From the NCBI GenBank assembly GCA_009877105.1, contig WXFD01000006.1, positions 155,292 through 219,291 on the forward strand: a DNA stretch of 64,000 nucleotides, written 5' to 3'. Positions 1,287 to 20,556 of this stretch are shown here, piece after piece (the stretch's first letter is position 1; each line of letters opens with the position of its first letter). Source of the stretch: Bacteroidales bacterium. Its GTDB lineage: Bacteria; Bacteroidota; Bacteroidia; Bacteroidales; VadinHA17. The translations under genes were made by a program, and so were the position numbers. A model generated the notes under the pieces. It was not told the DNA's origin. It worked only from the letters and a program-made list of their open reading frames with translations, and did no database searches.

Positions 1287-4200
1287 TCACCGGCTAAGGA
1301 CAAACAGTTTATTTGATGTAAGCCGTGAATTGTCAATCACTTCAAGCTGCATGTTATATCCTGATGCCAGCTCACTGATGAATCTCCCTGAAAAGAAGAA
1401 CAGTCTCCTGTCAAGGCTTTTATTATATCCGAATGTGGTTGAAAAGAACTCTGTGAATCTTGTTCCCAGGTGTCGTTTCTGAAGGTCGCTGTCGGCATCC
1501 CGGATTATTATTTTTCCTCCGGGTTTTAGTCGGCGGATGCAGCTTGCCAGCAATCCTGCCTGTCTTTCGCGGGGAACATAGTGCAGAACATCGCTGAGGA
1601 GGAAAACATCGGCATCCGGATAATCATATGTTACGGCGTCGGCAGCCACAAAGCTTATTCTGTCATTCTTCGAGATGCAGTTGTTTGCCAGCTCTATTTT
1701 GTTCTCGTCATAATCGATGCCGAGGATGTTCCTGTTTTCCGATGTGAATCCCAGCATGTAAGATATAATACCGTATCCGCAGCCGATATCGACAACTTGT
1801 GCATTTTCGGGCACCAGGCTGTTTATATATTCATAGTTCCTTTCCAGCCTGAGTTTAATCCTGGTATACCATTCAAGCACCGGCCCCTTGTAGATATAGT
1901 TGCTTACAAGCCTGTTCCTGAAATATGATGGTGTTTCCAGTTCTTTCCTTAGAACTTTGTATTCTTCCCTGTAAAACCTGAGAAATGTCCTTGTGCGCTG
2001 ATGGTAGTCGTGCCCAAAGTCAGTATCCGTTGCTGCCACCCTGGGGTATATTTTCAACGTGACGCTGCCTTTTCTGAGATGATTTTCTCCCTTTCTCATA
2101 CAGTCACCTGCTCCGTGAATGAGTATGGGAGTAATGTCCAGTCCAAGCTTTTCAGCCATCAAAAATGCTCCCTTGTGAAAACGAAGGATCTCCGAGTCAG
2201 GTGACCGGGTTCCCTCGGGAAAAACCAGGATCGAATAACCTTCCCCGATTTCCTTTTCAAGCTTCTCAATCAGGTTTTCATATCCCCACGATACCGGGTA
2301 GAAGTGGAGATATCTGATAACAAGGGCATAAAGCGGATTGTTCCAGACCCAGTTGTTTGTGAGTATAATTATTTTCGGATTGAGCATCAGCAGCAGGGGG
2401 AGGTCGAGATGTGACTGATGATTCGATATAATAAGCGAAGGTCTGGAAAAATCGGCATTTTCACGATTCAATATGGTTTTCCTGATGCCTGTAAGTCCGT
2501 AAACCGGTAATCTGATGCACCACATCAGCGCATGATGCATGAACTTTCTCTTTTTCTTCCCGGAAACAGGGACCAGGAGGACAGCAATAAGCAGGATGTT
2601 AAGAAGAACACACAGAACCAGACCTGCGGTCAGTGTAACAACTGTCAGCAGAACTTCAGAAATTGTCATGGGAAGATAGCGGTTCTTACCTTTTTTCCTG
2701 ACCAGCCAGTTGAAAACTACTATCTCAAAAGTATAGGAGATCAGTACCACCGAAAGCAATCCCACGATCGATATCAGTGCTATGGATTTCAGTGCAGGAT
2801 GTTTTGCAAGTATCAATACACCGGTTCCGGAAATAGATATCAGGACGGACAGCAGAATGCATGTCTTGTATGATAGGAGGTTCCTTGTCCCGGTCTTGTA
2901 TCCCTGGACCAATCCCTGCATTATGTAAATGCTGTAATCGATCCCCAGCCCGGTGATGAACTGGGAAATGATGATGTTGAATATGTTGAATTTGATACCT
3001 GTGATTCCCATGAACCCGAGTGTCCAGAACCAGCTTACAAGAATGGGAATGAAGGTGATGAAACCAAGCTCAAACCGGCCAAAGACTATTATCATTATTA
3101 CCAGTATGATCGACAGGCTGACATTGGCTATGAAATCAAAGTCTCTTCCCAGCACTCTTACCACTTCCGACAATATTGATTTCCTGTCAATCACAACCAC
3201 TCCATCAATTTTGCCTATTTCCTCCTCAACATAATCCTTGTTCCTTGCATCTGTTTTCATTACCGAAACTATGGCGGTCAGACCGGGAGCATAAGTGATG
3301 TTTTCGGAGTAAAAATGATCGGCCAGCTTTCGAAAGTCACCGGGGTCCATCAGCGTATACTTTCTGTCAAGCAAATTGTAAAACTCTTCAAAAGCATCCT
3401 GCCGGAAGCCTGTTCTTGCAGAATAATATCTGAAATTTTTCAGGAAAGAATCCTTTTTATTCCTGTTCCAGAAAAGATTCCATCTTTCAATTCGCTTTTT
3501 CTGAAGCGAATCGGACGATAAGAGGGCGCCGGGTGAATTGAAGGTTCTTATCCTGTTTTCTGCCATCATGGTTTTTCCTTCTGCCATCAGTTTCTCATTG
3601 TTCACGAGGGCTTCCTGCAGGTCTTCGCCATGAGCTATTACATAAACCGAATTGAGCTTGTAATTATTGATCCTGTTCAGATTCTCCTCGGCTATGGCAA
3701 GTTTCTTCGACATGTAATTCATTTTCATCATATCGCTTTCGAAACCCACTTTGTAAAAATAGAACCAGCTGACCACCGTTGCTATTACCATGAAGAGAAG
3801 AAGTCTTTTATTCTTATCGAATTCATAATTGGTCACCTTGTCTAGAATTCGCTCGAGGTAGTTTTTTTCCTCTGTTTCATCATCCTCTCTCCTGGTAACA
3901 TCCAGTATCTGCGGCATTACGATCATTGTAAAGAAGGCTGCGGTAATCACGCTTATGGCTGCAAGGATGCCTAGCTCATGCAATGACTCGGAGGAGACAA
4001 GAACAAGGCTCATGAACTCAAAGGCAGTTGTAAAACCGCAGACGATTATCGGAAAGGATACATCCCTGATCGTTTCGGCCACTGAATGTTTATGCTTGTA
4101 ATGAGCCGTAATATGCAAGGCATAGTCGACGGTAATTGCAAGGATAACCGTGCCGATGCTCAGGGCTATTATGGATATTTTTGCCTGAACGAGATAAATA

Positions 4201-5144
4201 ACTGCAAGGGCAGTGAGCCCGCCAAAAACTGCAGGCAGAAAAATAAAAGGTATCAGTGCCTTCTTTTTTATTGAGAAGGTAATGATCAGGAACAGAAGGA
4301 TTATCGTTATGGTTATTGTCAGGCTGATATCTCTTTTCAGCCTGTCGGCGTTGCCGGCTGCCACCGCTGCCGAACCAAAATACTCGATCCTGATCTGACT
4401 GCCTGCTTCCCTCGATATTGCATTTATAACACCGTCAAGTTCCTTGATCAGCCTGGATGTTTTTGAAGTGACATTTGAAGAGTATGTCGTGGTCAGGAAC
4501 ATCAGAAGGCTCTTTTTATCCCTCGAAAAAATCGATCCGTCAATTATCAGGTAGTTGATGTCATTTTGAAAGGCTCTGAGCTTCCTGGTGACGATACTTG
4601 TCAGCCCTGCCGGATCCATGAGTATATTTCGTTTCATGGCGAAGGATGCGGGTGTAAGCAGGCTGTTGTAACTGTTCTCAAGTGATTCCCTGATCTTTTC
4701 CGGTGCTATCAGCGAATCAAGCGCAACATAGTCCTCTTCCTCCAGGAAAAGAGGAAGATTCCTGTAAACGATTGCCATTACATCTTCCATGATATTATCA
4801 GGTATCCTGAATGTGACGTCACTCAGGTACTGGGGAAAATCCCCGGTCTGCAGGGTGTCATAGAGCTTTTTTCCTACCAGGATCAGCCTATCGGGAGCCG
4901 GCGGAGCAGAGGTATCGGCAAGCGAGATATTTACTATGATCTTGTCAAGAAATTTCGAACGGTTGAATATTGTTGTTATTTCAGTTTTGCGGTCAACACC
5001 CGAGATCATCTTTGCAATGTCTTCCTCAAAACTGATCCTTGATGCGAGCAGTGCGGCAATCAGCAGTATTGCCGTTACAATCGTGAAGAACAGTATCCTC
5101 CTGCTCTTGAAATAACCGAACAGAAAAAGAAAGAAGTTTTCCAT
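1287..5144 (-). CDS. triple-fusion protein: MMPL/RND-type exporter + PlsC-type (lysophospholipid) acyltransferase + class I SAM methyltransferase
   Basis: 1285 aa. The N-terminal ~800 aa have two blocks of TM helices separated by large soluble loops (MMPL architecture). The middle has NHQSHLD (HX4D) and FPEGTRS acyltransferase motifs. The C-terminus has the VVDIGCGYG SAM-binding motif plus LKPGG. Confidence 0.85.
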   Translation of the reverse strand: MENFFLFLFGYFKSRRILFFTIVTAILLIAALLASRISFEEDIAKMISGVDRKTEITTIFNRSKFLDKIIVNISLADTSAPPAPDRLILVGKKLYDTLQTGDFPQYLSDVTFRIPDNIMEDVMAIVYRNLPLFLEEEDYVALDSLIAPEKIRESLENSYNSLLTPASFAMKRNILMDPAGLTSIVTRKLRAFQNDINYLIIDGSIFSRDKKSLLMFLTTTYSSNVTSKTSRLIKELDGVINAISREAGSQIRIEYFGSAAVAAGNADRLKRDISLTITITIILLFLIITFSIKKKALIPFIFLPAVFGGLTALAVIYLVQAKISIIALSIGTVILAITVDYALHITAHYKHKHSVAETIRDVSFPIIVCGFTTAFEFMSLVLVSSESLHELGILAAISVITAAFFTMIVMPQILDVTRREDDETEEKNYLERILDKVTNYEFDKNKRLLLFMVIATVVSWFYFYKVGFESDMMKMNYMSKKLAIAEENLNRINNYKLNSVYVIAHGEDLQEALVNNEKLMAEGKTMMAENRIRTFNSPGALLSSDSLQKKRIERWNLFWNRNKKDSFLKNFRYYSARTGFRQDAFEEFYNLLDRKYTLMDPGDFRKLADHFYSENITYAPGLTAIVSVMKTDARNKDYVEEEIGKIDGVVVIDRKSILSEVVRVLGRDFDFIANVSLSIILVIMIIVFGRFELGFITFIPILVSWFWTLGFMGITGIKFNIFNIIISQFITGLGIDYSIYIMQGLVQGYKTGTRNLLSYKTCILLSVLISISGTGVLILAKHPALKSIALISIVGLLSVVLISYTFEIVVFNWLVRKKGKNRYLPMTISEVLLTVVTLTAGLVLCVLLNILLIAVLLVPVSGKKKRKFMHHALMWCIRLPVYGLTGIRKTILNRENADFSRPSLIISNHQSHLDLPLLLMLNPKIIILTNNWVWNNPLYALVIRYLHFYPVSWGYENLIEKLEKEIGEGYSILVFPEGTRSPDSEILRFHKGAFLMAEKLGLDITPILIHGAGDCMRKGENHLRKGSVTLKIYPRVAATDTDFGHDYHQRTRTFLRFYREEYKVLRKELETPSYFRNRLVSNYIYKGPVLEWYTRIKLRLERNYEYINSLVPENAQVVDIGCGYGIISYMLGFTSENRNILGIDYDENKIELANNCISKNDRISFVAADAVTYDYPDADVFLLSDVLHYVPRERQAGLLASCIRRLKPGGKIIIRDADSDLQKRHLGTRFTEFFSTTFGYNKSLDRRLFFFSGRFISELASGYNMQLEVIDNSRLTSNKLFVLSR

Positions 5145-6311
5145 TTACATACTCAATATCACCGGTTTCCTCCTCACAAGTTTCAGAACCACGAATGAAA
5201 CCAGTCCGGCAAAAGCAGCAAAAACGGCTGCGAATATAAAAGCGCCTGTAATATACTGCAACAAATTGTTCTCAAAAGTCTTCAGCGTGATTTCTCCGCT
5301 GAAGCTGATCCGGCTTCCCGTTCCGAGTACGATCCCTCCCGTTGCATAGCTCAGGTACAGGATCAGGGGGATCATCGGGGGTATGCTGATATTGGCAGCA
5401 ACGGCAACCAGGAACTTGCTCAGCCTGAAAATATGGGCAAGAGCCAATGCCGTTACAAGTTGAAAACCCCAGATCGGAACAATACCCATAAATATTCCGA
5501 ATGCAATGGCGAGCGAGATTTTCAGATTTGTTTCCCGGGTAAGCAGGATATGTTTATTCACAAATTCTTTAATCTTTTCCTTGTTCAGATTCCGTAGGGA
5601 TGAAAACGGTATGATGTAGAATACGGCCGCCAGTACAAGACAGGTATTCAGCAGGCTGATCCTTGCAAAGTCCCTGAAAAACCTGTAATGTGAAACACGT
5701 TCCTCCGCAGGAGGGTAGTAAACCCGCACCGGCACGCTAGAAATTTTTATTCCTTTCCAGGCTGCCCTTATCAGGATCTCGGTTTCAAATTCATACTTAA
5801 CGGTAAAGAATCTCATTGATTTGAGTGGCCCGAGGGGATATAGCCTGAATCCGGTCTGAGTATCATTCAGCTTTATTCCTGTAAGAAATCTGAACCAGAA
5901 ATTGGAGAATTTGTTTGCAAACCGGCTTCCGCGTGAGATATTTTTTACTCCAAGATTACGGTCGCCTGTGATCAGGCTGTCCGGTGAATTTTCCACGGCG
6001 GCAATAAAGGATGGTATGTCAGCCGGATCATGCTGTCCGTCGGAATCGATGGTTATAACATAATCATATCCTTCCTTAATGGCCAGGTCAAGTCCCTGTC
6101 GTATGGCATAACCTTTGCCCCTGTTAACCTGGTATGCAATAACTTTCAGGGAACCATTGACGAGAATGACATTACTGAGGATCTGTGCCGTCCTGTCGGT
6201 CGATCCGTCGTTGACAACAATGATATTCTCAGTGAATTCACGTACTCCGTTTATTACTTTTTCAAGTGTTGAATCGTTATTGTATGTCGGAATTATAACA
6301 CAATACCTCAT
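5145..6311 (-). CDS. family 2 glycosyltransferase fused to a DUF2062-like membrane domain
   Basis: IIPTYNN...VNDGSTDRT...DSDGQHD are GT2 motifs. The C-terminal half is hydrophobic (IVPIWGFQLVTALALAHIF...). The stop abuts the start of the 1287..5144 gene, suggesting an operon. Confidence 0.85.
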   Translation of the reverse strand: MRYCVIIPTYNNDSTLEKVINGVREFTENIIVVNDGSTDRTAQILSNVILVNGSLKVIAYQVNRGKGYAIRQGLDLAIKEGYDYVITIDSDGQHDPADIPSFIAAVENSPDSLITGDRNLGVKNISRGSRFANKFSNFWFRFLTGIKLNDTQTGFRLYPLGPLKSMRFFTVKYEFETEILIRAAWKGIKISSVPVRVYYPPAEERVSHYRFFRDFARISLLNTCLVLAAVFYIIPFSSLRNLNKEKIKEFVNKHILLTRETNLKISLAIAFGIFMGIVPIWGFQLVTALALAHIFRLSKFLVAVAANISIPPMIPLILYLSYATGGIVLGTGSRISFSGEITLKTFENNLLQYITGAFIFAAVFAAFAGLVSFVVLKLVRRKPVILSM

Positions 6312-6661
6312 CCCTGCAAACTGCGTTTTCTGAAGGAATCCGCATGAGTGATTTCAGATACGGTCCGGCAGTCGCTATCCCTTTCACCCGGAGCCGCGGG
6401 CCCGCCCAAATCAATCATGTTTGTCCCCTTCATTCCATTATAAGCCATGATCATACCATGGTTAAATCCGGGTTGAACCTCTTCTCCTGTTTGTACAGAC
6501 TGGTTTCTTTTTTCCGGGGGTTGCAAGTTAATTAAAAAATCAGATTATGATCTGGATTGTTCCCTTTGAAGATTTGGTTTAATAGTTTGTTTTTTTTACT
6601 TTGCGCAAATTTTTTCAGGCCCGATAAACCTTTAATTAAGCTTTCAGATAAATTTGGTTTT
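6312..6661. promoter_or_regulatory. divergent intergenic region between the two arms of the pigment cluster
   Basis: 350-bp AT-rich gap between the divergently oriented 5145..6311 (-) and 6662..8209 (+). Only short overlapping ORFs of 63-72 aa lie inside. No specific promoter was mapped. Confidence 0.4.
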
Positions 6662-8225: not shown

Positions 8226-8954
8226 ATGAAATACGCGCTTGTAACCGGAGGGTCGAGAGGAATTGGAAGGGCAGTGTGTACGGGCCTTGTTCCGCTGGGA
8301 TATCATGTTATCATCAATTACAGGAGCAATGATGCCGAGGCTGAAAAAACCCTTGCAATGATTAATCAGGCAGGAGGCACCGGGGAGCTTATGAAGTTTG
8401 ATGTTTCTGACTCCCGCCAGGTTGACGGGGCACTGAACAGGTGGAATGAACAACACGGCGATGACTATATTGAAGTGCTTGTCAATAATGCCGGCATCAG
8501 GAAGGATATGCTCATGATGTGGATGGAAAACGACAGCTGGAGGGAAGTCCTTTCAACCAATCTCGACGGATTCTTTTATGTCACCCGGGCATTACTGAAG
8601 AACATGCTTGTACGGAAATACGGAAGGATCATAAACATCGTTTCCTTATCGGGAATAAAGGGAATGCCCGGGCAGGTCAATTACTCTGCGGCTAAAGCAG
8701 CAATAATCGGAGCAACAAAGGCCCTTGCGCAGGAGATCGGGAAAAAGAACGTGACTGTCAATGCAGTTGCACCCGGCTTCATAAGAACCGACATGACCAG
8801 TGAACTGAATGAAAACGAACTGAAGGGTTTAATTCCCCTGAACAGGTTTGGTACACCTGAAGAAGTCGCTGAGGTGGTTTGTTTCCTGGCATCGTCAAAA
8901 TCGTCATATATAACCGGGGAGGTTATCTCGGTAAACGGCGGCCTGTATACATAA
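8226..8954 (+). CDS. SDR-family 3-oxoacyl-ACP reductase (FabG-like ketoreductase)
   Basis: ALVTGGSRGIGRA cofactor motif, NNAG, and YSAAK catalytic Tyr-x3-Lys. The start was moved to the internal ATG (MKYALVTGG). Confidence 0.9.
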   Translation: MKYALVTGGSRGIGRAVCTGLVPLGYHVIINYRSNDAEAEKTLAMINQAGGTGELMKFDVSDSRQVDGALNRWNEQHGDDYIEVLVNNAGIRKDMLMMWMENDSWREVLSTNLDGFFYVTRALLKNMLVRKYGRIINIVSLSGIKGMPGQVNYSAAKAAIIGATKALAQEIGKKNVTVNAVAPGFIRTDMTSELNENELKGLIPLNRFGTPEEVAEVVCFLASSKSSYITGEVISVNGGLYT

Positions 8955-8985: not shown

Positions 8986-10206
8986 ATGAACAGAGTAGTT
9001 ATAACCGGCATGGGGATTTACTCCTCGATTGGAAAGAACCTCGTGGAAGTAAATGATTCTCTTTACAGGGGCAAATCGGGAATCATCCTGGATCCGGCAA
9101 GAAAAGCTTTCGGCTATCAATCGGCCCTGACGGGGAAACTTGACAGGCCGGTACTGAAAGGACTTATTGACAGGAGATCCCGCGTCTGCATGCCCGAACA
9201 TGCCGAATATGCGTATATATCAACCATTGAAGCCCTGAAAACAGCCGGGCTAGACAATGACTACCTTGAACAGAACGAAGTGGGTATCCTGTTCGGCAAT
9301 GACAGCTCAATGTATCCTGTAGTAGAATGTGTTGACATAGTACGCGACAAGAAGGACTCCACGCTTGTCGGTTCAGGCTCAGTGTTTCAGTCAATGAATT
9401 CAACGGTGACAATGAACCTTTCCGTTATTTTCAAACTCAGGGGGATTAATTTCACCCTGAGCGGTGCGTGTGCAAGTGGCTCACATTCAATTGGGATGGG
9501 TTACTTCCTCATAAAGCACGGATATCAGAATACCATTATATGCGGAGGAGCACAGGAGGCGAATATTTATTGCGTGGTCAGCTTCGACGGGCTGGGGGCA
9601 TTCTCAAAACAGGAAACCGAACCTGAAAAAGCTTCCAGGCCCTTCGATAAGAGAAGAGACGGACTGGTTCCAAGCGGAGGTGCGGCAACCGTCATCCTTG
9701 AAAATCTCGACCATGCCCTCAAAAGAGGTGCACCCATCCTGGGCGAAGTGACGGGCTATGGCTTCTCCTCCGACGGGGTGCACATTTCCGTCCCTGATGT
9801 TGACGGCCCGGTGAGAGCCATCATGATGGCACTGAAAGATGCAGGAATTCAACCCGGCGATGTGGATTACATTAATGCTCACGCTACCTCCACACCCCTG
9901 GGTGACCAGAATGAAGCCAAGGCAATAGACAGGGTTTTCGGTAAAAACAAGCCCCCCGTATCTTCCACCAAATCAATGACCGGACATGAGATGTGGATGG
10001 CAGGAGCAAGTGAAATCGTATATTCACTGCTGATGATGCAGAACTCATATATCGCCCCGAACATCAACCTGGAAGAACCTGATGAATACTCTGCCGCACT
10101 GAATATCGTCAGGCAAACCACACCAATGGAATTTAATACCTTTCTTTCCAACTCATTCGGCTTCGGTGGAACAAATTCATGTTTAGTAATCAGGAAATTT
10201 CATTAA
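8986..10206 (+). CDS. beta-ketoacyl-ACP synthase (FabF/FabB-like KS)
   Basis: Catalytic triad context: SGACASGSHS (Cys), NAHATSTPLGD (His), SMTGHEMWMAG (His). C-terminal SFGFGGTN. Confidence 0.9.
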   Translation: MNRVVITGMGIYSSIGKNLVEVNDSLYRGKSGIILDPARKAFGYQSALTGKLDRPVLKGLIDRRSRVCMPEHAEYAYISTIEALKTAGLDNDYLEQNEVGILFGNDSSMYPVVECVDIVRDKKDSTLVGSGSVFQSMNSTVTMNLSVIFKLRGINFTLSGACASGSHSIGMGYFLIKHGYQNTIICGGAQEANIYCVVSFDGLGAFSKQETEPEKASRPFDKRRDGLVPSGGAATVILENLDHALKRGAPILGEVTGYGFSSDGVHISVPDVDGPVRAIMMALKDAGIQPGDVDYINAHATSTPLGDQNEAKAIDRVFGKNKPPVSSTKSMTGHEMWMAGASEIVYSLLMMQNSYIAPNINLEEPDEYSAALNIVRQTTPMEFNTFLSNSFGFGGTNSCLVIRKFH

Positions 10207-10229: not shown

Positions 10230-10478
10230 ATGACCAGAGAAGAAATTATAGGGATAATAAATAACCTGCTTATTGAAGAATTTGAGATTTCTGAAGCCCA
10301 GCTCATGCCCGGCGCCCATCTGAAAAATGATCTTGGACTTGAAAGCCTCGATTTTGTTGATATCGCGGTAATAGTGCAGAAGGAATTCGGACTTACCCTT
10401 AAGGGAGAGGAAATGACAACAATCACAACACTTCAAAGTCTTTACGATCACATAGCAAACCGTTACAACAAGAATTAA
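10230..10478 (+). CDS. acyl carrier protein
   Basis: 82 aa from the internal ATG. LGLESLDFVD is the phosphopantetheine-serine motif. Confidence 0.8.
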   Translation: MTREEIIGIINNLLIEEFEISEAQLMPGAHLKNDLGLESLDFVDIAVIVQKEFGLTLKGEEMTTITTLQSLYDHIANRYNKN

Positions 10479-10484: not shown

Positions 10485-11384
10485 GTGACTGACTGGAAAG
10501 GAAAAACCCGCGGGGGGTTGGCAGGATATAAGATATTCGTCACAGTTTTAAAATACCTCGGACTTTCTTTCGCATATTTTATTCTTTATTTCGTTGCTTT
10601 TTATTTCCTTTTTGCATCGCGGCAATCATTCGTTAATACATACCGCTTCTACCGCTTCAGGCTCGGCTTTGGATCTGTAAGATCGGTTCTATGTGTTTAC
10701 AGGAACTACTATACTTTCGGACAGGTTCTGCTCGACAAAACAGCCCTCCTTGCCGGTTTCGAAAATAAGTTCACCTTCACCTTTGATGGCGAGGATCACC
10801 TTAGAAACATGGTTGAGTCAGGTACCGGCGGACTGCTGGTAAGCGCACATGTCGGGAATTTTGAAATGGCCGGCAATATGCTTGAAAGACTTGATACACA
10901 AGTGAGTATAATCATGGTCGACGCGGAACATGAGAAAATCCGGGATTATCTTTCAACCCTTACCCGTAAGAGTTTCAATATAATTGCAATAAGGGAGGAT
11001 AATTCGCATATCCGCGAGATTGGCAGGGCCTTTGAAGAAAAGCAGATCGTTTGCATTCATGGCGACAGGTTCGTAAAAGGCAGCAAGATCATTCCCGCCT
11101 CATTCCTGGGCGAACGGGCATTCTTCCCCGGTGGCCCGTTCTACCTGGCCATGAAATTCAATGTCCCGTTGTCGTTTGTTTTTGCAATGAAGGAACCGGG
11201 AAAACACTATCATTTTTATGCAAGCCCTCCAAAAATCTTCAGTCTGCCGGGAAGCCAGCAAAAAAGGGACCTGGTAATAACGCAAATATTAAAAGAGTAT
11301 ATTTGTCAGCTGGAAACAATGACAGGCAGGTATCCTTTGCAATGGTTCAATTATTACAATTTCTGGGCTCCATATGAGCAATAG
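10485..11384 (+). CDS. LpxL/HtrB-like lipid A-type (lysophospholipid) acyltransferase
   Basis: N-terminal TM segment. SAHVGNFE matches the HX4(D/E) motif of late acyltransferases (HxGNWE type). Apparent GTG start; the adjacent ATG at 10483 is followed immediately by TGA. Confidence 0.75.
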   Translation: MTDWKGKTRGGLAGYKIFVTVLKYLGLSFAYFILYFVAFYFLFASRQSFVNTYRFYRFRLGFGSVRSVLCVYRNYYTFGQVLLDKTALLAGFENKFTFTFDGEDHLRNMVESGTGGLLVSAHVGNFEMAGNMLERLDTQVSIIMVDAEHEKIRDYLSTLTRKSFNIIAIREDNSHIREIGRAFEEKQIVCIHGDRFVKGSKIIPASFLGERAFFPGGPFYLAMKFNVPLSFVFAMKEPGKHYHFYASPPKIFSLPGSQQKRDLVITQILKEYICQLETMTGRYPLQWFNYYNFWAPYEQ

Positions 11385-12732
11385 AAGATTATTGCTGGTT
11401 TCAGCAAACAGGTTCACGGTGCCATACCCGGTATACCCTCTCGGGATCTCATACCTCAAGGCATACCTGAATGAGACGATGCCGTCACTGAAGATTGATG
11501 TATTCGATTTTATGACAGGGTCATTTGAAGATTACATAAAACTGCTTCATGAAATAAAACCTGATTTTACGGGAATATCGCTGCGGAACATAGATGATGT
11601 GAATATTTACAGACAGGAAAGTTTTATTTCACATTACAGGCAGATAATAAAAAGCACAAGGGAAAACAGCAGTTCAGTTATAGTAATCGGAGGTTCGGGA
11701 TTTTCAATTTATCCGGAATTGCTTTTTAAGACCCTGGAACCTGATTTCGCAGTATACGGTGAGGGGGAAATCAGTCTTGAAAAATTGCTGTCCGCCATTG
11801 AAAACAACCTCGACTATTCCACCATCGAAGGACTGCTTTACAGGGAACATGACAGGATAGTTTTCAACGAACGCAAGACCTTCTTCAATACTCCCACCCT
11901 GAGTTTTGACAGTGGCATGCTCGACTATTACTGGCAGAACAGCGGCATGCTGAATATCCAGACGAAAAGAGGCTGTCCTTATAACTGCATTTATTGCACA
12001 TATCCGCTTATAGAAGGACACAGGGTGAGAACGATCGATCCCGGCCGTATTGTGAAAACATTAACAGATCTGAAACACAGGTTCAATATAAACTACATCT
12101 TTTTTACCGACTCAGTCTTCAATATAAGCAACAGCTTCAACTACAGGCTGGCAGATAAAATGATCGAAGCTGAACTTGACATCCGGTGGGGAGGCTATTT
12201 CAATTTTGCAAACATCGACTTTAAGCTTCTGGAGAAACTCCGGCAGGCCGGTCTGAAGCATATTGAATTTGGAACAGAATCATTGTCTGACCGGATGCTG
12301 GAAAATTACAGGAAGCCCTTTACAGTATCCGAGGTCCTTGATATTTCCTCAGCCTGCAACGACCTTGAGATCGATTTTGCTCATTTTCTCATTCTTGGAG
12401 GTTACGGAGAAACGGAATCTACCCTGGCAGAGACCTTTGAAAATTCAAAAAAAATCAACCGGACAGTCTTCTTTCCCTTTATCGGTATGAGGATCTATCC
12501 CGGAACCCGGTTACACGAAATTGCTATCGCTGAAAAAGCAGTTAAACCCGACGATCCTTTGCTTGAACCTGTATATTATGTGTCACGGGAGATAGATATT
12601 GATACGTTGAAGGAGAAGGCAAAGCGCACCCAGAAACAGTGGATTTTTCCCGACGAGGACATGTCGTCCGCAATGATGCGGATGAGAAAAAGAAACAGGA
12701 AAGGGCCTCTCTGGGAGTATCTGTTAAAATAA
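11374..12732 (+). CDS. B12-binding-domain radical SAM protein
   Basis: N-terminal Rossmann-like B12-binding-type region followed by CPYNCIYCTYP (CX3CX2C). Overlaps the previous gene by 11 nt. Confidence 0.85.
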   Translation: MSNRRLLLVSANRFTVPYPVYPLGISYLKAYLNETMPSLKIDVFDFMTGSFEDYIKLLHEIKPDFTGISLRNIDDVNIYRQESFISHYRQIIKSTRENSSSVIVIGGSGFSIYPELLFKTLEPDFAVYGEGEISLEKLLSAIENNLDYSTIEGLLYREHDRIVFNERKTFFNTPTLSFDSGMLDYYWQNSGMLNIQTKRGCPYNCIYCTYPLIEGHRVRTIDPGRIVKTLTDLKHRFNINYIFFTDSVFNISNSFNYRLADKMIEAELDIRWGGYFNFANIDFKLLEKLRQAGLKHIEFGTESLSDRMLENYRKPFTVSEVLDISSACNDLEIDFAHFLILGGYGETESTLAETFENSKKINRTVFFPFIGMRIYPGTRLHEIAIAEKAVKPDDPLLEPVYYVSREIDIDTLKEKAKRTQKQWIFPDEDMSSAMMRMRKRNRKGPLWEYLLK

Positions 12733-12741: not shown

Positions 12742-13182
12742 ATGGAGCCATCTGATTACGATATACTGGATCTTATTCCCCAGCGCCGTCCCATGCTGAT
12801 GATCGACAGACTTGTGCATGCAGGGGAAAAATACGGGGAAGGTGTTTTTCGTGTCAGGGAATCGAATCCGCTTTGTCTCGGGAAACACCTGTCAGAGGCC
12901 GGGATCCTTGAGTGCATCGCCCAGACTGCTGCTGCATACACCGGTTACTTAAGATTGTCAGCAAAAAAGGATGTTGTCAGGGGTTATATAGGATCGGTAA
13001 AGAACCTTAAAATCCATTTTTTGCCCCGTGCAGGCGATGAAATCAGGGTTGGAATAACCCTCCAGGACGAGGTGCTTGGGTTCACCATTGTAACCGGCAG
13101 GATTGAGTGTCTCGGGAATCTGGTGGCCGAATGCGAAATCAGGATCCTTCTGGAGGAGCACGATATTATCCCGTCGGGTTGA
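12742..13182 (+). CDS. hotdog-fold 3-hydroxyacyl-ACP dehydratase (FabA/FabZ-like)
   Basis: 146 aa. LIPQRRPMLMIDRL... N-terminus and overall pattern typical of the FabZ-like dehydratases found in aryl polyene clusters. Confidence 0.7.
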   Translation: MEPSDYDILDLIPQRRPMLMIDRLVHAGEKYGEGVFRVRESNPLCLGKHLSEAGILECIAQTAAAYTGYLRLSAKKDVVRGYIGSVKNLKIHFLPRAGDEIRVGITLQDEVLGFTIVTGRIECLGNLVAECEIRILLEEHDIIPSG

Positions 13183-13217
13183 ACGGATAATGTTACACTA
13201 AACTGATATCGAATCCT

Positions 13218-13225
13218 TATATTTG
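13218..13225 (+). promoter_or_regulatory. candidate Bacteroidota -7 promoter box (TATATTTG = TAnnTTTG)
   Basis: Exact match to the TAnnTTTG consensus, about 22 nt upstream of the ATG at 13248, in the only sizeable gap (13183-13247) inside the plus-strand operon. No clear -33 TTTG was seen. Confidence 0.3.
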
Positions 13226-13247
13226 CAACTTTATTTACTCTTAAGTG

Positions 13248-13673
13248 ATGAAGGTAAGTGAGGTTCCCCAGGATAAGGGCTACCTGATTGAAGGCAGGAT
13301 AAGCGATCTGAATTATGCCATCGACAATGACGGGAGATATACCAGCCGGCAAAGCCGGGGCTGGAAACCCAAGAATGAAGCTATTAAATTCGCATGGGAC
13401 CAGGTTTATGAACATGCCGGCAAATTGCGGCAGCAGATCCTTGACGGAATCCTGAGCCCCATAGCCCTGTACATGGAGCTTAACCTGATGGATATTTCAA
13501 TCCTGGCAGGTTATACCGGTATCTCGAAAAGAAAAGTAAGAAAACATCTCAGGATGAAAGAGTTTCTTAAACTGCCGAAAGAAATGATCGATCGTTATGC
13601 CGAAGCTCTTAATATTACCGCTGAGGATCTTGTCAACATCGGAAAGATCAGGGAATTCAAATATGAAGATTGA
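13248..13673 (+). CDS. hypothetical protein with C-terminal helix-turn-helix-like segment
   Basis: 141 aa. ILAGYTGISKRKVRKHL looks like an HTH. No other recognisable motif. Confidence 0.5.
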   Translation: MKVSEVPQDKGYLIEGRISDLNYAIDNDGRYTSRQSRGWKPKNEAIKFAWDQVYEHAGKLRQQILDGILSPIALYMELNLMDISILAGYTGISKRKVRKHLRMKEFLKLPKEMIDRYAEALNITAEDLVNIGKIREFKYED

Positions 13674-14667
13674 GTTTGAACACAGGCAGGCGGCTCATTG
13701 CGAGAACGGGGTAACAGCAGGTCTGCTAAGGTACTACGGTATTGACCTGAGTGAGCCAATGGTTTTTGGGACCGGATCGGGCATTTTCTTCTCCCACATG
13801 GTATTCATCAGGGTCAACGAAATGGCTGTGACTTCCTTTCGCGTCTGGCCCGGGGTAATTTTCAAAAGGGTTACCAAACGATTCGGGGTCAGTATAAAAT
13901 GGCGGAAATTTCGCGATCCCGACAAGGCAATGCAGGCGCTTGACAGTTTGCTTGCACGGGGTATTCCTGTAGGAATGCTTGTCGGCGTATTCAATCTTCC
14001 TTATTTTCCAAAGGAATATAGGTTCCATTTCAACGCGCATAATATCACTGTTATTGGAAAGGAGGGTGATAAATATCTTATCAGCGATCCCGTAACCGAA
14101 AACGTTGAGAGCCTTACATATGATGAACTCAAAAAAGTGAGGTTCGCAAAGGGAACGGTTCCCCCGAAGGGCAGAATGTACTATGTTACTTCAATGCCGG
14201 AGAAATTCGATTTAAAATCTGCGATAATAAAGGGAATCCGAAAAACAGCCAATGACATGATCAACATTCCCCTGCCAATGTTTGGCGTGAAGGGTATACG
14301 TTACCTGGCAGGAAAAATGCGGGAATGGCCCTCAAAACTCGGAGACAGGTCAGCTGTAATGAACCTGGGACAGGTTATACGGATGCTTGAGGAAATTGGC
14401 ACGGGAGGTGCCGGATTCAGGTTCATTTATGCCGCCTTTCTCCAGGAAAGCGCCAGGGTATTGCAACTGCCCGTACTTGATGAACTCAGTGTCGAAATGA
14501 CCGGTGCCGGCGACAGGTGGCGGGAATTTGCCTGGCAGGCTTCCCGCTGTTTCAAGAATCGCGACAACGGGGAAATTACATACGATATGCTGGCAGACAT
14601 ACTTTTGGACATTGCAGCAAGGGAAGAAAGGGTCTTCAGGCAGCTCGGACAATTAAAATTCACATGA
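13663..14667 (+). CDS. BtrH_N / DUF4872-like protein (papain-fold acyl-carrier transferase/peptidase-like)
   Basis: From the internal ATG: MKIEFEHRQAAHCENGVTAGLLRYYG, the HCE(N/T)G motif typical of the BtrH N-terminal domain. Overlaps the previous gene by 11 nt, and its stop overlaps the next start (ATGA). Confidence 0.65.
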   Translation: MKIEFEHRQAAHCENGVTAGLLRYYGIDLSEPMVFGTGSGIFFSHMVFIRVNEMAVTSFRVWPGVIFKRVTKRFGVSIKWRKFRDPDKAMQALDSLLARGIPVGMLVGVFNLPYFPKEYRFHFNAHNITVIGKEGDKYLISDPVTENVESLTYDELKKVRFAKGTVPPKGRMYYVTSMPEKFDLKSAIIKGIRKTANDMINIPLPMFGVKGIRYLAGKMREWPSKLGDRSAVMNLGQVIRMLEEIGTGGAGFRFIYAAFLQESARVLQLPVLDELSVEMTGAGDRWREFAWQASRCFKNRDNGEITYDMLADILLDIAAREERVFRQLGQLKFT

Positions 14668-15416
14668 CCATCCGGACCGCAATCGAAATAAAAAACCTGA
14701 CAAAAAGATACAGGGGAAATCCCCAACCTGCTGTAAACGGGGTGAGTCTTGATATAGAAGAAGGCCATTTCTTCGGACTGCTTGGTCCAAACGGTGCAGG
14801 CAAGACCACCATGATAAAGATCATGTGCGGACTGCTTTCACCTTCCTCCGGGGAAGTGACCATAGGAGGCTTATCACTCAGGAAACAGCTGCCTGAAATT
14901 AAAAGATCAATAGGGATTGTACCCCAGGACATCGCTTTGTATTCAACTCTTACTGCCAGGGAAAATCTGAAAATCTTTGGCGGATTATACGGGATTCCTG
15001 CAAGGAAACTGAAAGAGCGCATCGATAAGTGGTTCAGCATCTTTGGGCTTGAAAAAAACCGGGAACAAACAATCGGGTCATACTCCGGAGGTATGAAACG
15101 CAGGCTTAATCTTATTGCCGGTATTCTTCATGAACCGAAGATCCTTTTCCTCGATGAACCTACAGTAGGAATAGACGTACAGTCAAAAAAAGTCATAACC
15201 GAAAACCTCAGGGAAATCAATCAGGGAGGTACAACAATCGTGTATACCTCCCATTACCTCGAGGAAGCGGAAAGTCTTTGCTCTTCCATTGCCATCATTG
15301 ATCAGGGTGTGATAATAATAAAAGGCACAATGGAGGAGATCAGATCGGAAACCAACAATATGTCAAAACTGGAGGATATCTTTCTTCAGCTTACAGGTAT
15401 GGAGCCAAGAGACTGA
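14664..15416 (+). CDS. ABC transporter ATP-binding protein
   Basis: Walker A GPNGAGKTT, signature YSGGMKRR, Walker B ILFLDEPT. The start was moved to MTIRTAIEIKNLTK (ATGA overlap with the upstream stop). Confidence 0.9.
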   Translation: MTIRTAIEIKNLTKRYRGNPQPAVNGVSLDIEEGHFFGLLGPNGAGKTTMIKIMCGLLSPSSGEVTIGGLSLRKQLPEIKRSIGIVPQDIALYSTLTARENLKIFGGLYGIPARKLKERIDKWFSIFGLEKNREQTIGSYSGGMKRRLNLIAGILHEPKILFLDEPTVGIDVQSKKVITENLREINQGGTTIVYTSHYLEEAESLCSSIAIIDQGVIIIKGTMEEIRSETNNMSKLEDIFLQLTGMEPRD

Positions 15417-15417
15417 A

Positions 15418-16695
15418 ATGAAAAGCATCCGGACATTACTGTATAAGGACTTTCTCATCCTGATTCGCGACAAATGGGGACTGGGACTATTATTCGCCAT
15501 GCCAATGGCATTGGTCCTTATCATGACTGCCATGCAGGATACCACATTCAGGTCACTGTACGAGACAGGGATCAACCTGGTCCTTTTGAATAATGATCTC
15601 GATTCCCTGGGCAATGCGGTTGAGAAAGAGATTTCAGGATCGGGGATTTTTAACTGTAACACCTCAATAAACGGCCATAGACCTATAGAGTCAGAAATAC
15701 GTGAAGCCGTTGCTGCCGGAAGGTACCAGATAGGGATCATAATCCCGGCTAACACAACTTCAAGGATTAGGGAACGTGTAAAAACCAGTATGGAAAACAT
15801 CTTCTCGGGCTCTGGCGTCAATCCCGGAAAAACCGACTCCATTTACATTACCCTCCTCCTGGATCCGGCAATCCGGTCATCGCTCCGTACCTACATCCAG
15901 AGTAAGATCAGTGAATATGCATCAAAGATCGAGACCAGGTTTTTCCTGAATGAACTGACCCTGGAAATTAACAGGCAGATGATTGTTTCGGTTGCAAACC
16001 TTAATCTTTTGCAGCCCCAGACGGTAACCTGCAGGGAGGAACTGGTTGCTTTCGGCAACCGGATCGCGATCCCTAACACGGCTCAGCATAATGTTCCTTC
16101 ATGGACATTGTTTGCAATGTTTTTCATAGTGATCCCGTTTGCCGGGGCAATGATTAAGGAGCGGGAGGACGGAAATCTCGAAAGACTGCTTGCAATGCCG
16201 GCCTCCTACGGTTCAATAATGATCTCCAGGGTGCTTGTTTATCTCGTGGTTTGTTTCCTGCAATTTGTTCTGATAATGGCCATGGGGGTTTACCTGTTTC
16301 CTCTTCTGAAACTCCCGTCACTGGTCATTGCCGGAAGAATGCCGGATCTTGCAGCAATGGCTGTTTTTGCTTCCCTTGCAGCGGTAAGTTATGGAATAGC
16401 AATAGGCACCATGGCCCACACACACCAGCAGGCCGCAATTTTCGGATCCGTTTCCGTAATGATTCTGGCTGCCCTGGGAGGAATATGGGTGCCGGTATTC
16501 ATTATGCCCCCGTTTCTCAAGAGTCTGAGTGTTATATCGCCAATGAACTGGGCACTTAACGGCTTCTATGATATACTTGTTCGCAATGCATCGCTTTCCG
16601 GCGTGATCCATTACGGCGTCAGGCTCGTTTTATTTTCGCTCGCGGCTATTCTTGCAGCATTATATTTCAACAGGATTAGAAAAGGACTCACCTGA
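15418..16695 (+). CDS. ABC-2 type transporter permease
   Basis: N-terminal TM helix, a large extracytoplasmic loop, then five C-terminal TM helices. Starts 1 nt after the ATPase stop. Confidence 0.85.
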   Translation: MKSIRTLLYKDFLILIRDKWGLGLLFAMPMALVLIMTAMQDTTFRSLYETGINLVLLNNDLDSLGNAVEKEISGSGIFNCNTSINGHRPIESEIREAVAAGRYQIGIIIPANTTSRIRERVKTSMENIFSGSGVNPGKTDSIYITLLLDPAIRSSLRTYIQSKISEYASKIETRFFLNELTLEINRQMIVSVANLNLLQPQTVTCREELVAFGNRIAIPNTAQHNVPSWTLFAMFFIVIPFAGAMIKEREDGNLERLLAMPASYGSIMISRVLVYLVVCFLQFVLIMAMGVYLFPLLKLPSLVIAGRMPDLAAMAVFASLAAVSYGIAIGTMAHTHQQAAIFGSVSVMILAALGGIWVPVFIMPPFLKSLSVISPMNWALNGFYDILVRNASLSGVIHYGVRLVLFSLAAILAALYFNRIRKGLT

Positions 16696-16834
16696 GAATA
16701 CATGAATTCCCCTTCAGTACAGGGCTGAACTCAATTAATTATGCTGATTGAAAAGAGATTTTTATAAATTTACACCCTGATTTTTGTTTTTCACGGCACT
16801 TTCAGTGTGCCTCGCATACAGGATTCAGATTTTT

Positions 16835-17098
16835 ATGGAAGATTTAATTGCACAGATAAAACAGGATATTATTACCTCATTGTCGCTTGAAGATGTCAGG
16901 ATTGATGATTTCAATGCCGACACCGATCTCTTTGTTACGGGTCTGGGGCTGGATTCAATAGATGCTATTGAGCTTATCCTTCTGATGGAGAAGAAATACG
17001 GGGTAAAGATCGAGGATCCGAGGGAAAGGCGTACCGTTCTGAGAAATGTCAGGACAATGGCAGAGTGCATCTTAAACCACAGAAACACTATCTACTAA
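16835..17098 (+). CDS. acyl carrier protein (second ACP)
   Basis: 87 aa from the internal ATG. GLGLDSIDAIEL is a DSx phosphopantetheinylation motif. Confidence 0.8.
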   Translation: MEDLIAQIKQDIITSLSLEDVRIDDFNADTDLFVTGLGLDSIDAIELILLMEKKYGVKIEDPRERRTVLRNVRTMAECILNHRNTIY

Positions 17099-18288
17099 TG
17101 CAACCGGGGGTTGTAGTCACAGGTATCGGCATTGTATCTGCGATTGGAATCGGCACAGAAGAGACCCTCACATCATTGTTAAATAAAAGATCAGGGATAG
17201 CCCCGGTCCGGTGGCTTGAAACCATTCATTCCGGCATTCCCGTTGCTGAAGTCAGCCATTCCACCGATGAACTGGCTGAAATTGCCGGCACATCCGGGCA
17301 GCCCGGTATTTTTACCCGCAACACTTTACTGGCGATGATTGCTGCAGGACAGTCGGTTGAGATGTCGGAGCCATCCGGTTCCGGACTCGATCAGGCCGGT
17401 CTTGTCATGGCGACTACCGTTGGAGGGATGGATTACAACGAGAAGCACTACCGGTCATTGCTGGCCGGAAAGGAAACAGCAGGCGGGACATCCGTCCTTG
17501 ACAGTTCGGACACCACCGAAAAGCTGGCCGCGCGGTTTGGTATACTTCGCAATGTAACAACAATATCAACCGCCTGCTCCTCCTCTGCAAATGCAATAAT
17601 GCTTGCTTCGAGGCTTATAAGAAACGGGAAGCTGACCAGAGTACTGGCAGGTGGATCTGATGCCCTGACCATATTCACCCTCAACGGGTTCAGGGGACTC
17701 GAATTGCTTTCCCCGACGGGATGCCGGCCTTTCGATGCTCACCGCGACGGACTGACACTCGGAGAAGGTGCCGCCGTTCTCATGCTCGAATCGGATCGTA
17801 CGGCAGATATGTCAAAAGCACTCTGCAGAATATCGGGATATGCCAATGTAAATGAGGCATTTCATCAGACATCAGCATCACCTGACGGAGCAGGGGCTTT
17901 CATGGCCATGTCGGAATGCCTCGAATCAGCAGGCCTTGAACCCTGGGAAATAGGATACATCAATGCCCACGGTACCGGTACTGAAATGAATGACCGGGCC
18001 GAAGCGCTTGCCATTGAACGTCTGTTCGGCAGGAAAATACCTCCCGTAAGCTCCACCAAGGCATTCACCGGTCACACCCTGGGTGCTGCGGGTGCAATCG
18101 AAGCCGTTATCTCTGTCCTGGCAATCAGGGAACAGAAAGTCTGGCCCTCCATCCACATTAATGAGGTCATGCCGGAGATCTCCTTTTTACCGCCAAATGA
18201 TACACTTTCAGTGCCTGTAGGGCATGTCATGTCCAATTCATTTGGTTTTGGCGGAAATAATACATCCCTGATATTCTCGGAAATATGA
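17098..18288 (+). CDS. beta-ketoacyl synthase (KS-alpha-like)
   Basis: ISTACSSSANAI (Cys), NAHGTGTEMND (His), AFTGHTLGAAG (His). The start overlaps the ACP stop (TAATG). Confidence 0.9.
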   Translation: MQPGVVVTGIGIVSAIGIGTEETLTSLLNKRSGIAPVRWLETIHSGIPVAEVSHSTDELAEIAGTSGQPGIFTRNTLLAMIAAGQSVEMSEPSGSGLDQAGLVMATTVGGMDYNEKHYRSLLAGKETAGGTSVLDSSDTTEKLAARFGILRNVTTISTACSSSANAIMLASRLIRNGKLTRVLAGGSDALTIFTLNGFRGLELLSPTGCRPFDAHRDGLTLGEGAAVLMLESDRTADMSKALCRISGYANVNEAFHQTSASPDGAGAFMAMSECLESAGLEPWEIGYINAHGTGTEMNDRAEALAIERLFGRKIPPVSSTKAFTGHTLGAAGAIEAVISVLAIREQKVWPSIHINEVMPEISFLPPNDTLSVPVGHVMSNSFGFGGNNTSLIFSEI

Positions 18289-19355
18289 AAGCTTTTATCA
18301 GATCTGCCGGAATAATTTCGCCGCAGCAGACTTATGACTGCAGAGGATTTCCAGAGGTTTTCAGGGGAGGTATTTCCGACAGGCTTTCCTGCATTGAACC
18401 CGACTACCATTCATTAATCAATCCTGTTCAGCTGCGCCGTATGCCAAGGATCCTGAAAATGGGACTGGCAGCAGCAAGGTTGGCTTTATCGGATCAGGAA
18501 AATGCCGATCCGGATGGGATCATTGTAGGAACCGGACTGGGTTGCCTGAGAAGCCTTGAAACGTTCCTCGATGAAATCTTTGATACAGGTGAGCAGATCA
18601 AAAGTGTGCTGCCGTTCATTAACTCGACTCACAATGCCGTGGCTGCACAGATCGCCATGCTGCTGAAAAACAACAGTTACAACGTCACATATTGTCATCG
18701 CAGCTTTTCCTTTGAAAGTGCACTGGCAGACGCTCTTATGCAATTAAAGGAAAAAAGCGGCATGAATATTCTTGTCGGGGGAATTGACGAACTAACCGAC
18801 GATTTCATAACGCTTCACAGGCCGGAAAGATTCCGTAAAGAACAATTGAATACCCTGGAGCTTGTCTCTGCACCCGATAGGGGTACAATTCCGGGAGAAG
18901 GTGCCGCTTTTTTCCTGATCTCGGATAACAGTGGAAACGGGGCATGTGCAGGCATCAGAGGCGTTCATACATTTCTAACGGACCCACGGTCCGCACAGGA
19001 ACTGATCTTTGCTGAAACTGACAAATTCCTTGAGTCCTCCGGAATGGACCGGAAGGATATCGATCTTGTAATCCTGGGAATGAACGGTGATACGGAGTCT
19101 GATGCTATTTACAAAGAACTTGCCAGGGATTACTTTGATTCATCCACCGGTATCGGCTGTTACAAGCATCTGTGCGGGGAGTATTATACCTCGACGGCCT
19201 TTGCGCTGTGGGCAGCCAAAAACATTCTGGAAACCCGGGCTGTCCCCGGTATGATGGTCCGGAAAGAAACGGGAAGGAAATCAATTGACAAAATACTCAT
19301 ATACAATCATTTCCTCAATACGGAACATTCCTTCATTATTGCGGGGAAAGATTAA
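18285..19355 (+). CDS. KS-like chain-length-factor-type partner (catalytically divergent)
   Basis: KS fold, but GMNGD replaces the HGTGT histidine motif and there is no TACSS-type cysteine motif. ATGA start/stop overlap with the preceding KS. Confidence 0.7.
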   Translation: MKAFIRSAGIISPQQTYDCRGFPEVFRGGISDRLSCIEPDYHSLINPVQLRRMPRILKMGLAAARLALSDQENADPDGIIVGTGLGCLRSLETFLDEIFDTGEQIKSVLPFINSTHNAVAAQIAMLLKNNSYNVTYCHRSFSFESALADALMQLKEKSGMNILVGGIDELTDDFITLHRPERFRKEQLNTLELVSAPDRGTIPGEGAAFFLISDNSGNGACAGIRGVHTFLTDPRSAQELIFAETDKFLESSGMDRKDIDLVILGMNGDTESDAIYKELARDYFDSSTGIGCYKHLCGEYYTSTAFALWAAKNILETRAVPGMMVRKETGRKSIDKILIYNHFLNTEHSFIIAGKD

Positions 19356-20553: not shown

Positions 20554-20556
20554 TGT

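Follow-up and report, generated by a model that had tools for sequence, protein, structure and literature searches.

A probable complete flexirubin-type aryl-polyene gene cluster, DarAB-less and bearing a cobalamin-binding radical SAM gene, in an uncultured Rikenellaceae bacterium

The 64-kb stretch of contig WXFD01000006.1 analyzed here (positions 155,292 to 219,291 of assembly GCA_009877105.1; referred to as the window) carries a set of genes at its left end that resembles the inventory of aryl-polyene and flexirubin pigment clusters. In an initial annotation of positions 1287 to 19355, an ammonia-lyase was described, but a starter ligase, a thioesterase, a LolA-like carrier and dialkylresorcinol (DAR) genes were not seen. 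The locus therefore raises the question whether the pathway is split or truncated, whether it loads its starter in an unusual way, or whether it is complete and simply cut by the window. Our analysis indicates that, with high probability, window positions 1-19355 form the right-hand part (19 kb) of a ~36-kb aryl-polyene pigment cluster of the flexirubin type (flx/dar) that is complete but lacks DarAB and bears a gene for a cobalamin-binding radical S-adenosylmethionine protein (rSAM) of family TIGR04072.

Window genes were annotated by open reading frame (ORF) listing, Pfam scans and NCBIfam models, and starts were taken from gene calls on identical public contigs. The genes are arranged in the order flxU, flxT / flxA-B-C-D-E-rSAM-F-darG-H-I-J-C-D-E (Table 1). 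FlxA, FlxB and DarH scored above the respective equivalog cutoffs and DarG above the cutoff of its subfamily model; together with the ApeP-like hotdog protein, this bears out the cluster type proposed initially. All genes that had been listed between 1287 and 19355 were recovered, some with corrected starts (lyase at ATG 6662, not TTG 6557; DarH at 13663, the ABC ATPase at 14664 and DarD at 17098). The motif assignments also held, namely GASGDL of the 4-methylideneimidazole-5-one (MIO) group in the lyase, Cys-His-His in FlxC and DarD, the missing His motif of DarE, a partner resembling a chain-length factor (CLF), and the ATGA overlap at 18285-18288 that joins DarD and DarE. In the ketosynthase (KS) alignment, the catalytic-Cys and first-His columns are occupied by Ser and Gly in DarE. 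The "HTH protein" has to be renamed: it gave just a sub-threshold HTH_26 match (19.2 bits vs 22) and is a DarG-family protein instead, falling short of the flexirubin_DarG equivalog (138 vs 170). The remainder of the window encodes housekeeping functions (glycerol metabolism, fumarase, LpxK and others).

The window is 100.000% identical to the 241-kb JGI metagenome contig Ga0302239_1000013, and the cluster could be followed to the left of position 1. Locus L018, containing the FlxU gene with 10-kb flanks, continues leftward with the rest of the DUF5686 gene, two hypotheticals, FlxV, FlxW and FlxY; the last three lie together at window -3.4 to -7.8 kb on Ga0302239_1000013. A second locus, L103, overlaps L018 at 100.000% over 6645 bp and carries the left arm on to -16.8 kb. 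It was found via P0130, a FlxN homologue; the FlxY representative P0001 led to just a 6-kb contig of a near-identical strain. L103 adds genes for a desulfoferrodoxin, a 4HBT thioesterase, a KS (FlxI), a 212-aa protein, an acyl carrier protein (ACP; FlxM), a KS and a CLF (FlxN/O), a polysaccharide deacetylase (FlxP), LolA (FlxQ), a 179-aa protein and an ApeI-like dehydratase (DH; FlxS). Beyond -16.8 kb the genes are unrelated, so that the cluster spans window -16.8 kb to 19355. The same gene order was found in independent assemblies (JGI, ENA, Logan and NCBI metagenome-assembled genomes, MAGs), which makes a mis-assembly by contig joining unlikely. With both arms taken together, the type II set is complete (FlxB, C, D, F and DarC/D/E in the window; FlxI, M, N, O and FlxS outside it), as is the export and anchoring set (FlxU, FlxT and FlxE in the window; FlxP and FlxQ outside).

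These data bear directly on the idea of a split or truncated cluster, or of a non-canonical starter loading in which, for example, the BtrH-like protein replaces an adenylating enzyme and a thioesterase. The observation behind this idea was correct, since neither the region 1287-19355 nor the whole window contains an AMP-ligase, a thioesterase, LolA, DarA or DarB. For the ligase, the thioesterase and LolA, however, the apparent lack results from the position at which the window starts. FlxY lies 6.5-7.8 kb to the left on the same contig; the 4HBT thioesterase, LolA, a second KS/CLF pair and the ApeI-like DH follow, all within 6.5-17 kb of the window in the same genome. The BtrH-like protein is not a substitute loader but DarH, which belongs to the regular gene set of dar loci and occurs together with FlxY in canonical flexirubin clusters. 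No solved structural relative of DarH was found by sequence.

The right border does not point to truncation either. The initial annotation had the cluster run straight into a mobile element, and an IS200-like Y1 transposase gene (20083-20553) is indeed located inside a block at 19386-21190. This block is outside the cluster. It is present in locus L006 and wholly missing in L007, where DarE is followed after ~210 bp by the same neighbour gene. Because the cluster ends at the same gene with and without the block, the element is an insertion beside the cluster. Taken together, a split, truncated or differently loaded pathway is highly improbable. The transposase gene is flanked by direct repeats of ~660 bp (19386-20046 and 20531-21190, 91% identical), each of which holds a tandem array of a 131-bp unit (19475-19830 and 20620-20965) with the GC-rich, hairpin-like core CAGACCTCCGGTCTG. 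The arrangement looks closer to the type of REP elements and their RAYT transposases than to a classic IS200/IS605 element. Between the cluster end and a gene for a MIP glycerol facilitator lies a 183-aa ORF (21296-21847, minus strand) for which no Pfam or NCBIfam family was found; it is ~52% identical at the same position in L006, L007 and L008.

Relatives of the cluster were located by an rSAM scan of a genome collection, and the closest ones are uncultured Rikenellaceae MAGs. By tblastn, the right arm is common to at least three other Rikenellaceae species (L006, L007 and L008), with identical gene order and 64-95% protein identity, and the left arm is the same in L020, which is of the L008 species. 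The cluster belongs to a known type, here in a form without DarAB and with the rSAM, and it extends the range of flexirubin-type clusters to uncultured Rikenellaceae of the digester and sludge type. Flexirubin-like aryl-polyene clusters in anaerobic Bacteroidales have already been reported as predictions, for example in gut Bacteroides. This was also the sole related report from a literature search, in which no paper on an rSAM-bearing flexirubin cluster or on a Rikenellaceae aryl polyene was found.

The substrate of the ammonia-lyase had been left open in the initial annotation on account of a Ser-His pair as in histidine ammonia-lyases (HALs). The pair is there: motif 1 of the lyase reads RSH, and motif 2 reads NQD. 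It is, however, a published signature of FlxA. Chitinophaga pinensis FlxA has a HAL-like motif 1 and a motif 2 as in tyrosine and phenylalanine ammonia-lyases (TAL/PAL), yet it is a proven tyrosine ammonia-lyase with a kcat/KM of 7728 M-1 s-1 for Tyr vs 7.7 M-1 s-1 for Phe, and His is not a substrate (PMC3992019). The window lyase shows the same pairing of motifs. HALs are recognized by a Glu at motif 2 (PMC3992019, Fig. S1 legend), where the window lyase has Gln (NQD, not QED). Its scores remained below the cutoffs of the HutH model TIGR01225 (445 bits vs 539) and of the aminomutase equivalog (376 vs 501). The best solved relative was the tyrosine 2,3-aminomutase SgTAM (PDB 2qve/2ohy; E-value 2e-89). 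The pattern LQxNxxRSHxxGxG is in register between the two proteins, so that the His of the lyase falls on His93 of SgTAM (numbering by PDB-entry offset), and both share NQD as motif 2. His93 of SgTAM is a residue that we take to bind the phenolic hydroxyl. The window lyase is a predicted tyrosine ammonia-lyase.

This also affects the suggestion that the genes might belong to primary metabolism, with the lyase acting as HutH and the KS, CLF, ACP, ketoreductase (KR) and DH genes serving ordinary fatty-acid synthesis. Besides the Ser-His pair, it could draw on the fact that the next-best models of the KS proteins are FabB and FabF. Yet FlxC stayed below the equivalog cutoffs of FabB (403 vs 630) and FabF (348 vs 494), DarD stayed below that of FabF (277 vs 494), and DarE is devoid of the catalytic Cys. 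The lyase exceeds the FlxA equivalog cutoff and misses that of HutH, and all of these genes are embedded with FlxY, LolA, MMPL and DarH genes in a conserved 36-kb cluster. An assignment to primary metabolism is therefore scarcely credible.

The gene between flxE and flxF sets this cluster apart. The encoded rSAM has a CPYNCIYC motif (CX3CX2C core) at residue 201 and belongs to a family named "lipid biosynthesis B12-binding/radical SAM protein" ("ladderane-type"). Its closest solved chain is 6wte, a B12-dependent tryptophan C2-methyltransferase; AprD4 and OxsB are also among the solved relatives. Metagenome contigs were scanned with a FlxC alignment, and the flxE-flxF interval was inspected in the resulting 80 loci. 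Depending on the lineage, this slot contains nothing (~19 loci), the rSAM gene, a gene for the methyltransferase FlxJ (NF053543, up to 642 bits), or genes for a 301-aa protein and DarB (NF053539, 667 and 552 bits). Among 47 informative loci, rSAM was found in 15, FlxJ in 19 and neither in 13, and no locus had both (one-sided Fisher p = 5e-5, uncorrected for phylogeny). In a neighbour-joining tree of FlxC, loci of the rSAM type fall into three or more distinct clades, with FlxJ types interspersed. The rSAM does not overlap with DarAB either, as all three DarAB loci are devoid of it, and every DarG/H-bearing locus has either rSAM (9 loci) or DarAB (3 loci). A FlxJ reference matched nothing in the window or in L018 and L103. 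In a literature search, no description of this rSAM/FlxJ/DarAB pattern was found.

We infer from these sequence comparisons that the rSAM would be a tailoring C-methyltransferase standing in for FlxJ. Arguments for such a role are that rSAM and FlxJ use one and the same slot and exclude each other, that the protein belongs to class B, and that 6wte is its closest solved chain. Most characterized class-B rSAM enzymes are methylases. A replacement of DarAB by the rSAM was also considered as the leading explanation, prompted by Flavobacterium johnsoniae, where darA-darB lie between flxE and flxF. It was demoted to a minority view because the slot holds FlxJ in many loci, and because a B12-rSAM is an implausible substitute for a condensation of the ketoacyl synthase III (KAS-III) type.

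The absence of DAR genes noted initially stands for the part of the genome that was covered. No tblastn match (E<=1) to DarA or DarB references from metagenome loci was obtained in the window, L018 or L103, together ~91 kb of this genome, apart from a lone spurious one to the FlxC KS (84 aa, 27% identity). Likewise, no KAS-III Pfam domain was annotated in the window or in the ~27 kb to its left. Since DarAB is absent beside an intact DarG-J/DarC-E module, a dialkylresorcinol is improbable as the anchor, provided that darAB does not lie elsewhere in the genome. If it does, the product could still be a canonical DAR-esterified flexirubin, and the rSAM an unrelated extra tailoring enzyme. Two facts speak for this possibility: the flx and dar genes of C. 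pinensis are located at two distant loci (PMC3992019), and DarG-J and DarC-E as well as FlxW, the proposed esterifying enzyme, have all been kept here. On the other hand, darAB lies beside darG/H or flxF in the two reference organisms and in each of the three metagenome loci with DarAB (L041, L092 and L097), and DarG/H occurs without DarAB within 10 kb on either side not just in the window locus but in eight further ones (L006, L007, L008, L028, L034, L042, L070 and L081). Together with the negative tblastn result, this makes a canonical flexirubin unlikely.

Several points weigh against the picture of a DarAB-less cluster with a methylating rSAM. The host is an uncultured member of the Rikenellaceae (Bacteroidales), an anaerobic lineage, and the cluster is known from its genes alone. 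DarAB could sit elsewhere in the genome, of which ~91 kb were covered, and the 301-aa protein of L092 that served as DarA reference is not covered by a curated model but identified by its position next to DarB and by 41% identity between two loci. The rSAM is as exclusive with DarAB as with FlxJ, 13 loci have neither rSAM nor FlxJ, the exclusivity statistic ignores phylogeny, and the role of FlxJ is itself only proposed. Furthermore, the function of TIGR04072 is uncharacterized, and the family has been invoked for cyclobutane formation in the ladderane clusters of anammox bacteria (PMC13459092). The rSAM may accordingly carry out a non-methylating radical reaction, such as a cyclization, C-C coupling or reduction, on the polyene or a second acyl chain, and the product would then be a structurally new class of lipid pigment in anaerobes. 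Exclusivity with DarAB fits this view, as does the fact that several B12-rSAM enzymes are not methylases, with AprD4 and OxsB among the solved relatives, and that copies with 58-62% identity lie next to KS/CLF genes in MAGs of Thermodesulfobacteriota. It is at odds with the strict either/or use of one slot by rSAM and the SAM methyltransferase FlxJ, with the B12 methyltransferase as best solved relative, and with the prevalence of methylases in class B, and we regard it as rather doubtful. More generally, anaerobic Bacteroidales may repeatedly have swapped FlxJ and/or DarAB for the TIGR04072 rSAM in their flexirubin clusters. The product would be a DAR-less aryl-polyene lipid, whose anchor or tailoring, different from the canonical one, would be built or modified by the second module (DarG-J and DarC/D/E) and the rSAM. 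We put this forward tentatively, as one possibility.

The 58-62% identical copies of the rSAM were found in MAGs assigned to Thermodesulfobacteriota or delta-proteobacteria (L011-L013 and L015), the loci of which are short or frameshifted; in L012 and L015, KS/CLF genes lie downstream of it at a distance of 3-4 kb. These findings suggest that the rSAM has spread horizontally along with type II systems resembling those of aryl-polyene clusters. "Ladderane" rSAM calls outside the anammox bacteria were already known.

A pathway can be proposed from the characterized systems of C. pinensis and Xenorhabdus/E. coli. FlxA would deaminate tyrosine to 4-coumarate, and FlxY, encoded to the left of the window, would convert it to the CoA thioester; for these steps the predicted enzymes are close homologues of biochemically proven ones. 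The later steps of elongation, release and export follow the C. pinensis proposal and the knowledge of ape clusters, and are accordingly more conjectural. An ACP-bound 4-hydroxyphenyl-polyene might be built by FlxC, FlxI and the KS/CLF pairs FlxN/O and DarD/E with the ACPs FlxD, FlxM and DarC and the KR FlxB, with dehydration by the ApeP-like FlxF paired with the ApeI-like FlxS. The 4HBT thioesterase, the C45 acyltransferase FlxW, DarH and FlxE may then release the chain and transfer it to a lipid anchor. Transport to the outer membrane could involve FlxU (MMPL), FlxT, LolA (FlxQ) and the DarI/J ABC pump. In this scheme, C-methylation by the rSAM would take the place of the FlxJ step.

Table 1. 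Genes of the cluster in the window and of the left arm discussed in the text. Positions are those of the window; negative positions lie to the left of position 1.
Gene	Product or family	Position	Strand	Evidence
DUF5686	CarboxypepD_reg + DUF5686 outer-membrane-type protein, 3' part of 841 aa	1..1267	+	Pfam DUF5686 72 bits; full gene in L001/L018, start outside the window (L018 13878-16403)
flxU	MMPL exporter + PlsC-type acyltransferase + class I methyltransferase fusion, 1285 aa	1287..5144	-	Pfam MMPL, Acyltransferase, Methyltransf_11/25
flxT	GT2 glycosyltransferase + DUF2062	5145..6311	-	Pfam Glycos_transf_2 85 bits, DUF2062 69 bits
flxA	MIO tyrosine ammonia-lyase family, 515 aa	6662..8209	+	NF053541 FlxA_rubin_TAL 796.7 bits vs cutoff 700
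flxB	Short-chain dehydrogenase/reductase (SDR) ketoreductase	8226..8954	+	NF053542 FlxB_rubin_SDR 407.3 bits vs 340
flxC	KAS-I-like ketosynthase, triad Cys162/His299/His334	8986..10206	+	Pfam ketoacyl-synt N + C domains; alignment columns
flxD	Acyl carrier protein	10230..10478	+	PP-binding
flxE	LpxL-type (lipid A biosynthesis family) acyltransferase	10485..11384	+	PF03279 49.9 bits
rSAM	TIGR04072 cobalamin-binding radical SAM protein	11374..12732	+	TIGR04072 407.2 bits vs cutoff 360; Pfam B12-binding + Radical_SAM
flxF	ApeP-like hotdog dehydratase	12742..13182	+	PF22817 ApeP-like; weak FabZ similarity
darG	DarG-family protein, 141 aa	13248..13673	+	NF053536 DarG_fam 127 bits vs 70
darH	BtrH-related acyltransferase	13663..14667	+	NF053550 DarH_acyl 446.8 bits vs 300; Pfam BtrH_N + DUF4872
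darI	ABC transporter ATPase	14664..15416	+	ABC_tran 115 bits; position of C. pinensis darI
darJ	ABC-2 permease	15418..16695	+	ABC2_membrane_3; position of darJ
darC	DarC-like second ACP	16835..17098	+	PP-binding; 49% identical to FlxM ACP outside the window
darD	DarD-like ketosynthase, Cys-His-His triad intact	17098..18288	+	Pfam KS N + C domains; 50% identical to paralogue FlxN outside the window
darE	DarE-like chain-length-factor partner	18285..19355	+	Weak ketoacyl-synt match; 38% identical to FlxO outside the window
flxV	CrtI-like oxidoreductase	outside the window, L018		
flxW	C45 acyltransferase	outside the window, L018		NF040521 223 bits
flxY	AMP-binding protein, 4-coumarate-CoA ligase model	-6530 to -7822		NF053551 683.8 bits vs 520

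Several further genes accompany the cluster. The DUF5686 gene is embedded between flxU and flxV, is located between flxF and flxU in L010, and is also present in L020. The protein travels with the cluster in two arrangements and may be an outer-membrane component for the pigment. Between the DUF5686 gene and flxV there are two conserved hypotheticals of 383 aa (L018 17133-18284) and 201 aa (L018 16515-17120); homologues (42-45% identity) adjoin flxA in L037, L040 and L076, and one is also found in L101. For the embedded hypotheticals (201, 383, 197, 212, 179 and 162 aa), Pfam and NCBIfam gave nothing but a sub-threshold PlsC acyltransferase match of the 383-aa protein (21.6 bits vs 23). A gene for desulfoferrodoxin, a superoxide reductase, is located in the left arm between flxY and the thioesterase gene (L103 6728-7093, window ~-8.8 to -9.2 kb). 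It is kept in L019, L020 and L103, and L021 has a 121-aa gene of the same size at the matching position, with no recorded Pfam match. An oxidative-stress gene of an anaerobe is thus found inside a cluster for a presumed antioxidant pigment. Two of the rSAM-type clusters, L042 and L070, carry two tandem DarG-DarH pairs ahead of DarI/J.

Of the four functions that seemed to be missing, three lie beyond the window edge, and gaps at an edge need to be checked against the source contig before they are read biologically. The content of the flxE-flxF slot, with rSAM, FlxJ or DarAB and with rSAM never together with FlxJ or DarAB, is a testable pattern. If the swap of FlxJ and/or DarAB for rSAM is real, it would provide a first functional handle on TIGR04072, and "ladderane" gene cluster calls in non-anammox anaerobes would be aryl-polyene variants. 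With a coloured aryl-polyene product that is well suited to mass spectrometry, the function of this family would be easier to work out.

The characterized flexirubin systems used for comparison are the cluster Fjoh_1075-1110 of F. johnsoniae UW101 and the flxA-Y and darA-J loci of C. pinensis (Schoner et al. 2014, PMC3992019). In F. johnsoniae the order is flxA(1109)...flxE(1104)-darA-darB-flxF(1101)-..-darG-H-I-J(1095)-flxH..., and in C. pinensis flxA-B-C-D-E-F ... flxT-U-V-W-X-Y with a separate locus darE-D-C-J-I-H-G-B-A-F (PMC3992019, Tables S4/S5). The window cluster is collinear with F. johnsoniae, matching Fjoh_1109 to Fjoh_1095, and the total sizes are similar (~36 kb vs 37 kb). FlxA-F occur in the order shared by both organisms, and DarG-J come immediately after them, an arrangement also seen in F. 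johnsoniae. DarJ is followed by another ACP/KS/CLF set as in the dar locus of C. pinensis, where the order of the darG-darE block matches. FlxT, the triple-domain fusion FlxU, FlxV, FlxW, FlxY and the FlxH-I-L-M-N-O-P-Q-R-S block are also common to these systems, and the domain make-up of FlxU is that of C. pinensis FlxU (PMC3992019, Table S4). In contrast to F. johnsoniae, where DarA/DarB lie exactly between flxE and flxF, the TIGR04072 B12-rSAM occupies this position here and there is no DarA/DarB. The FlxJ methyltransferase, the halogenase (FlxK) and the phosphopantetheinyl transferase (FlxX) are also lacking, whereas the embedded DUF5686 gene, the two hypotheticals and the desulfoferrodoxin gene are additional. 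Moreover, both reference organisms are aerobic pigmented isolates, and the window derives from a Bacteroidales MAG of an anaerobic lineage.

With the ape clusters of E. coli, Xenorhabdus and Vibrio the locus shares type II KS/CLF genes, two ACPs, a KR, the pair of ApeP-like and ApeI-like DHs and a 4HBT thioesterase. Export proteins of the LolA-like and MMPL types, LPLAT acyltransferases and a glycosyltransferase are likewise common to both. The starter differs, being 4-hydroxybenzoate loaded by ApeH in the ape clusters and predicted to be derived from tyrosine via TAL and coumarate-CoA ligase (FlxA/FlxY) here. The DarG-J genes and the rSAM are additional, and a single fusion protein combines MMPL, acyltransferase and methyltransferase. 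Finally, the "ladderane-type" fatty-acid synthesis clusters of anammox bacteria, and those called "ladderane" by antiSMASH in other anaerobes, have in common with this locus a TIGR04072 rSAM among FabF-like KS, ACP, FabZ-like DH and CrtI-like oxidoreductase genes. Here, TAL, coumarate ligase and a full flexirubin export set are present in addition, and nothing points to ladderane lipids. The presence of the rSAM in such a cluster supports the view that TIGR04072 is not specific to ladderane synthesis.

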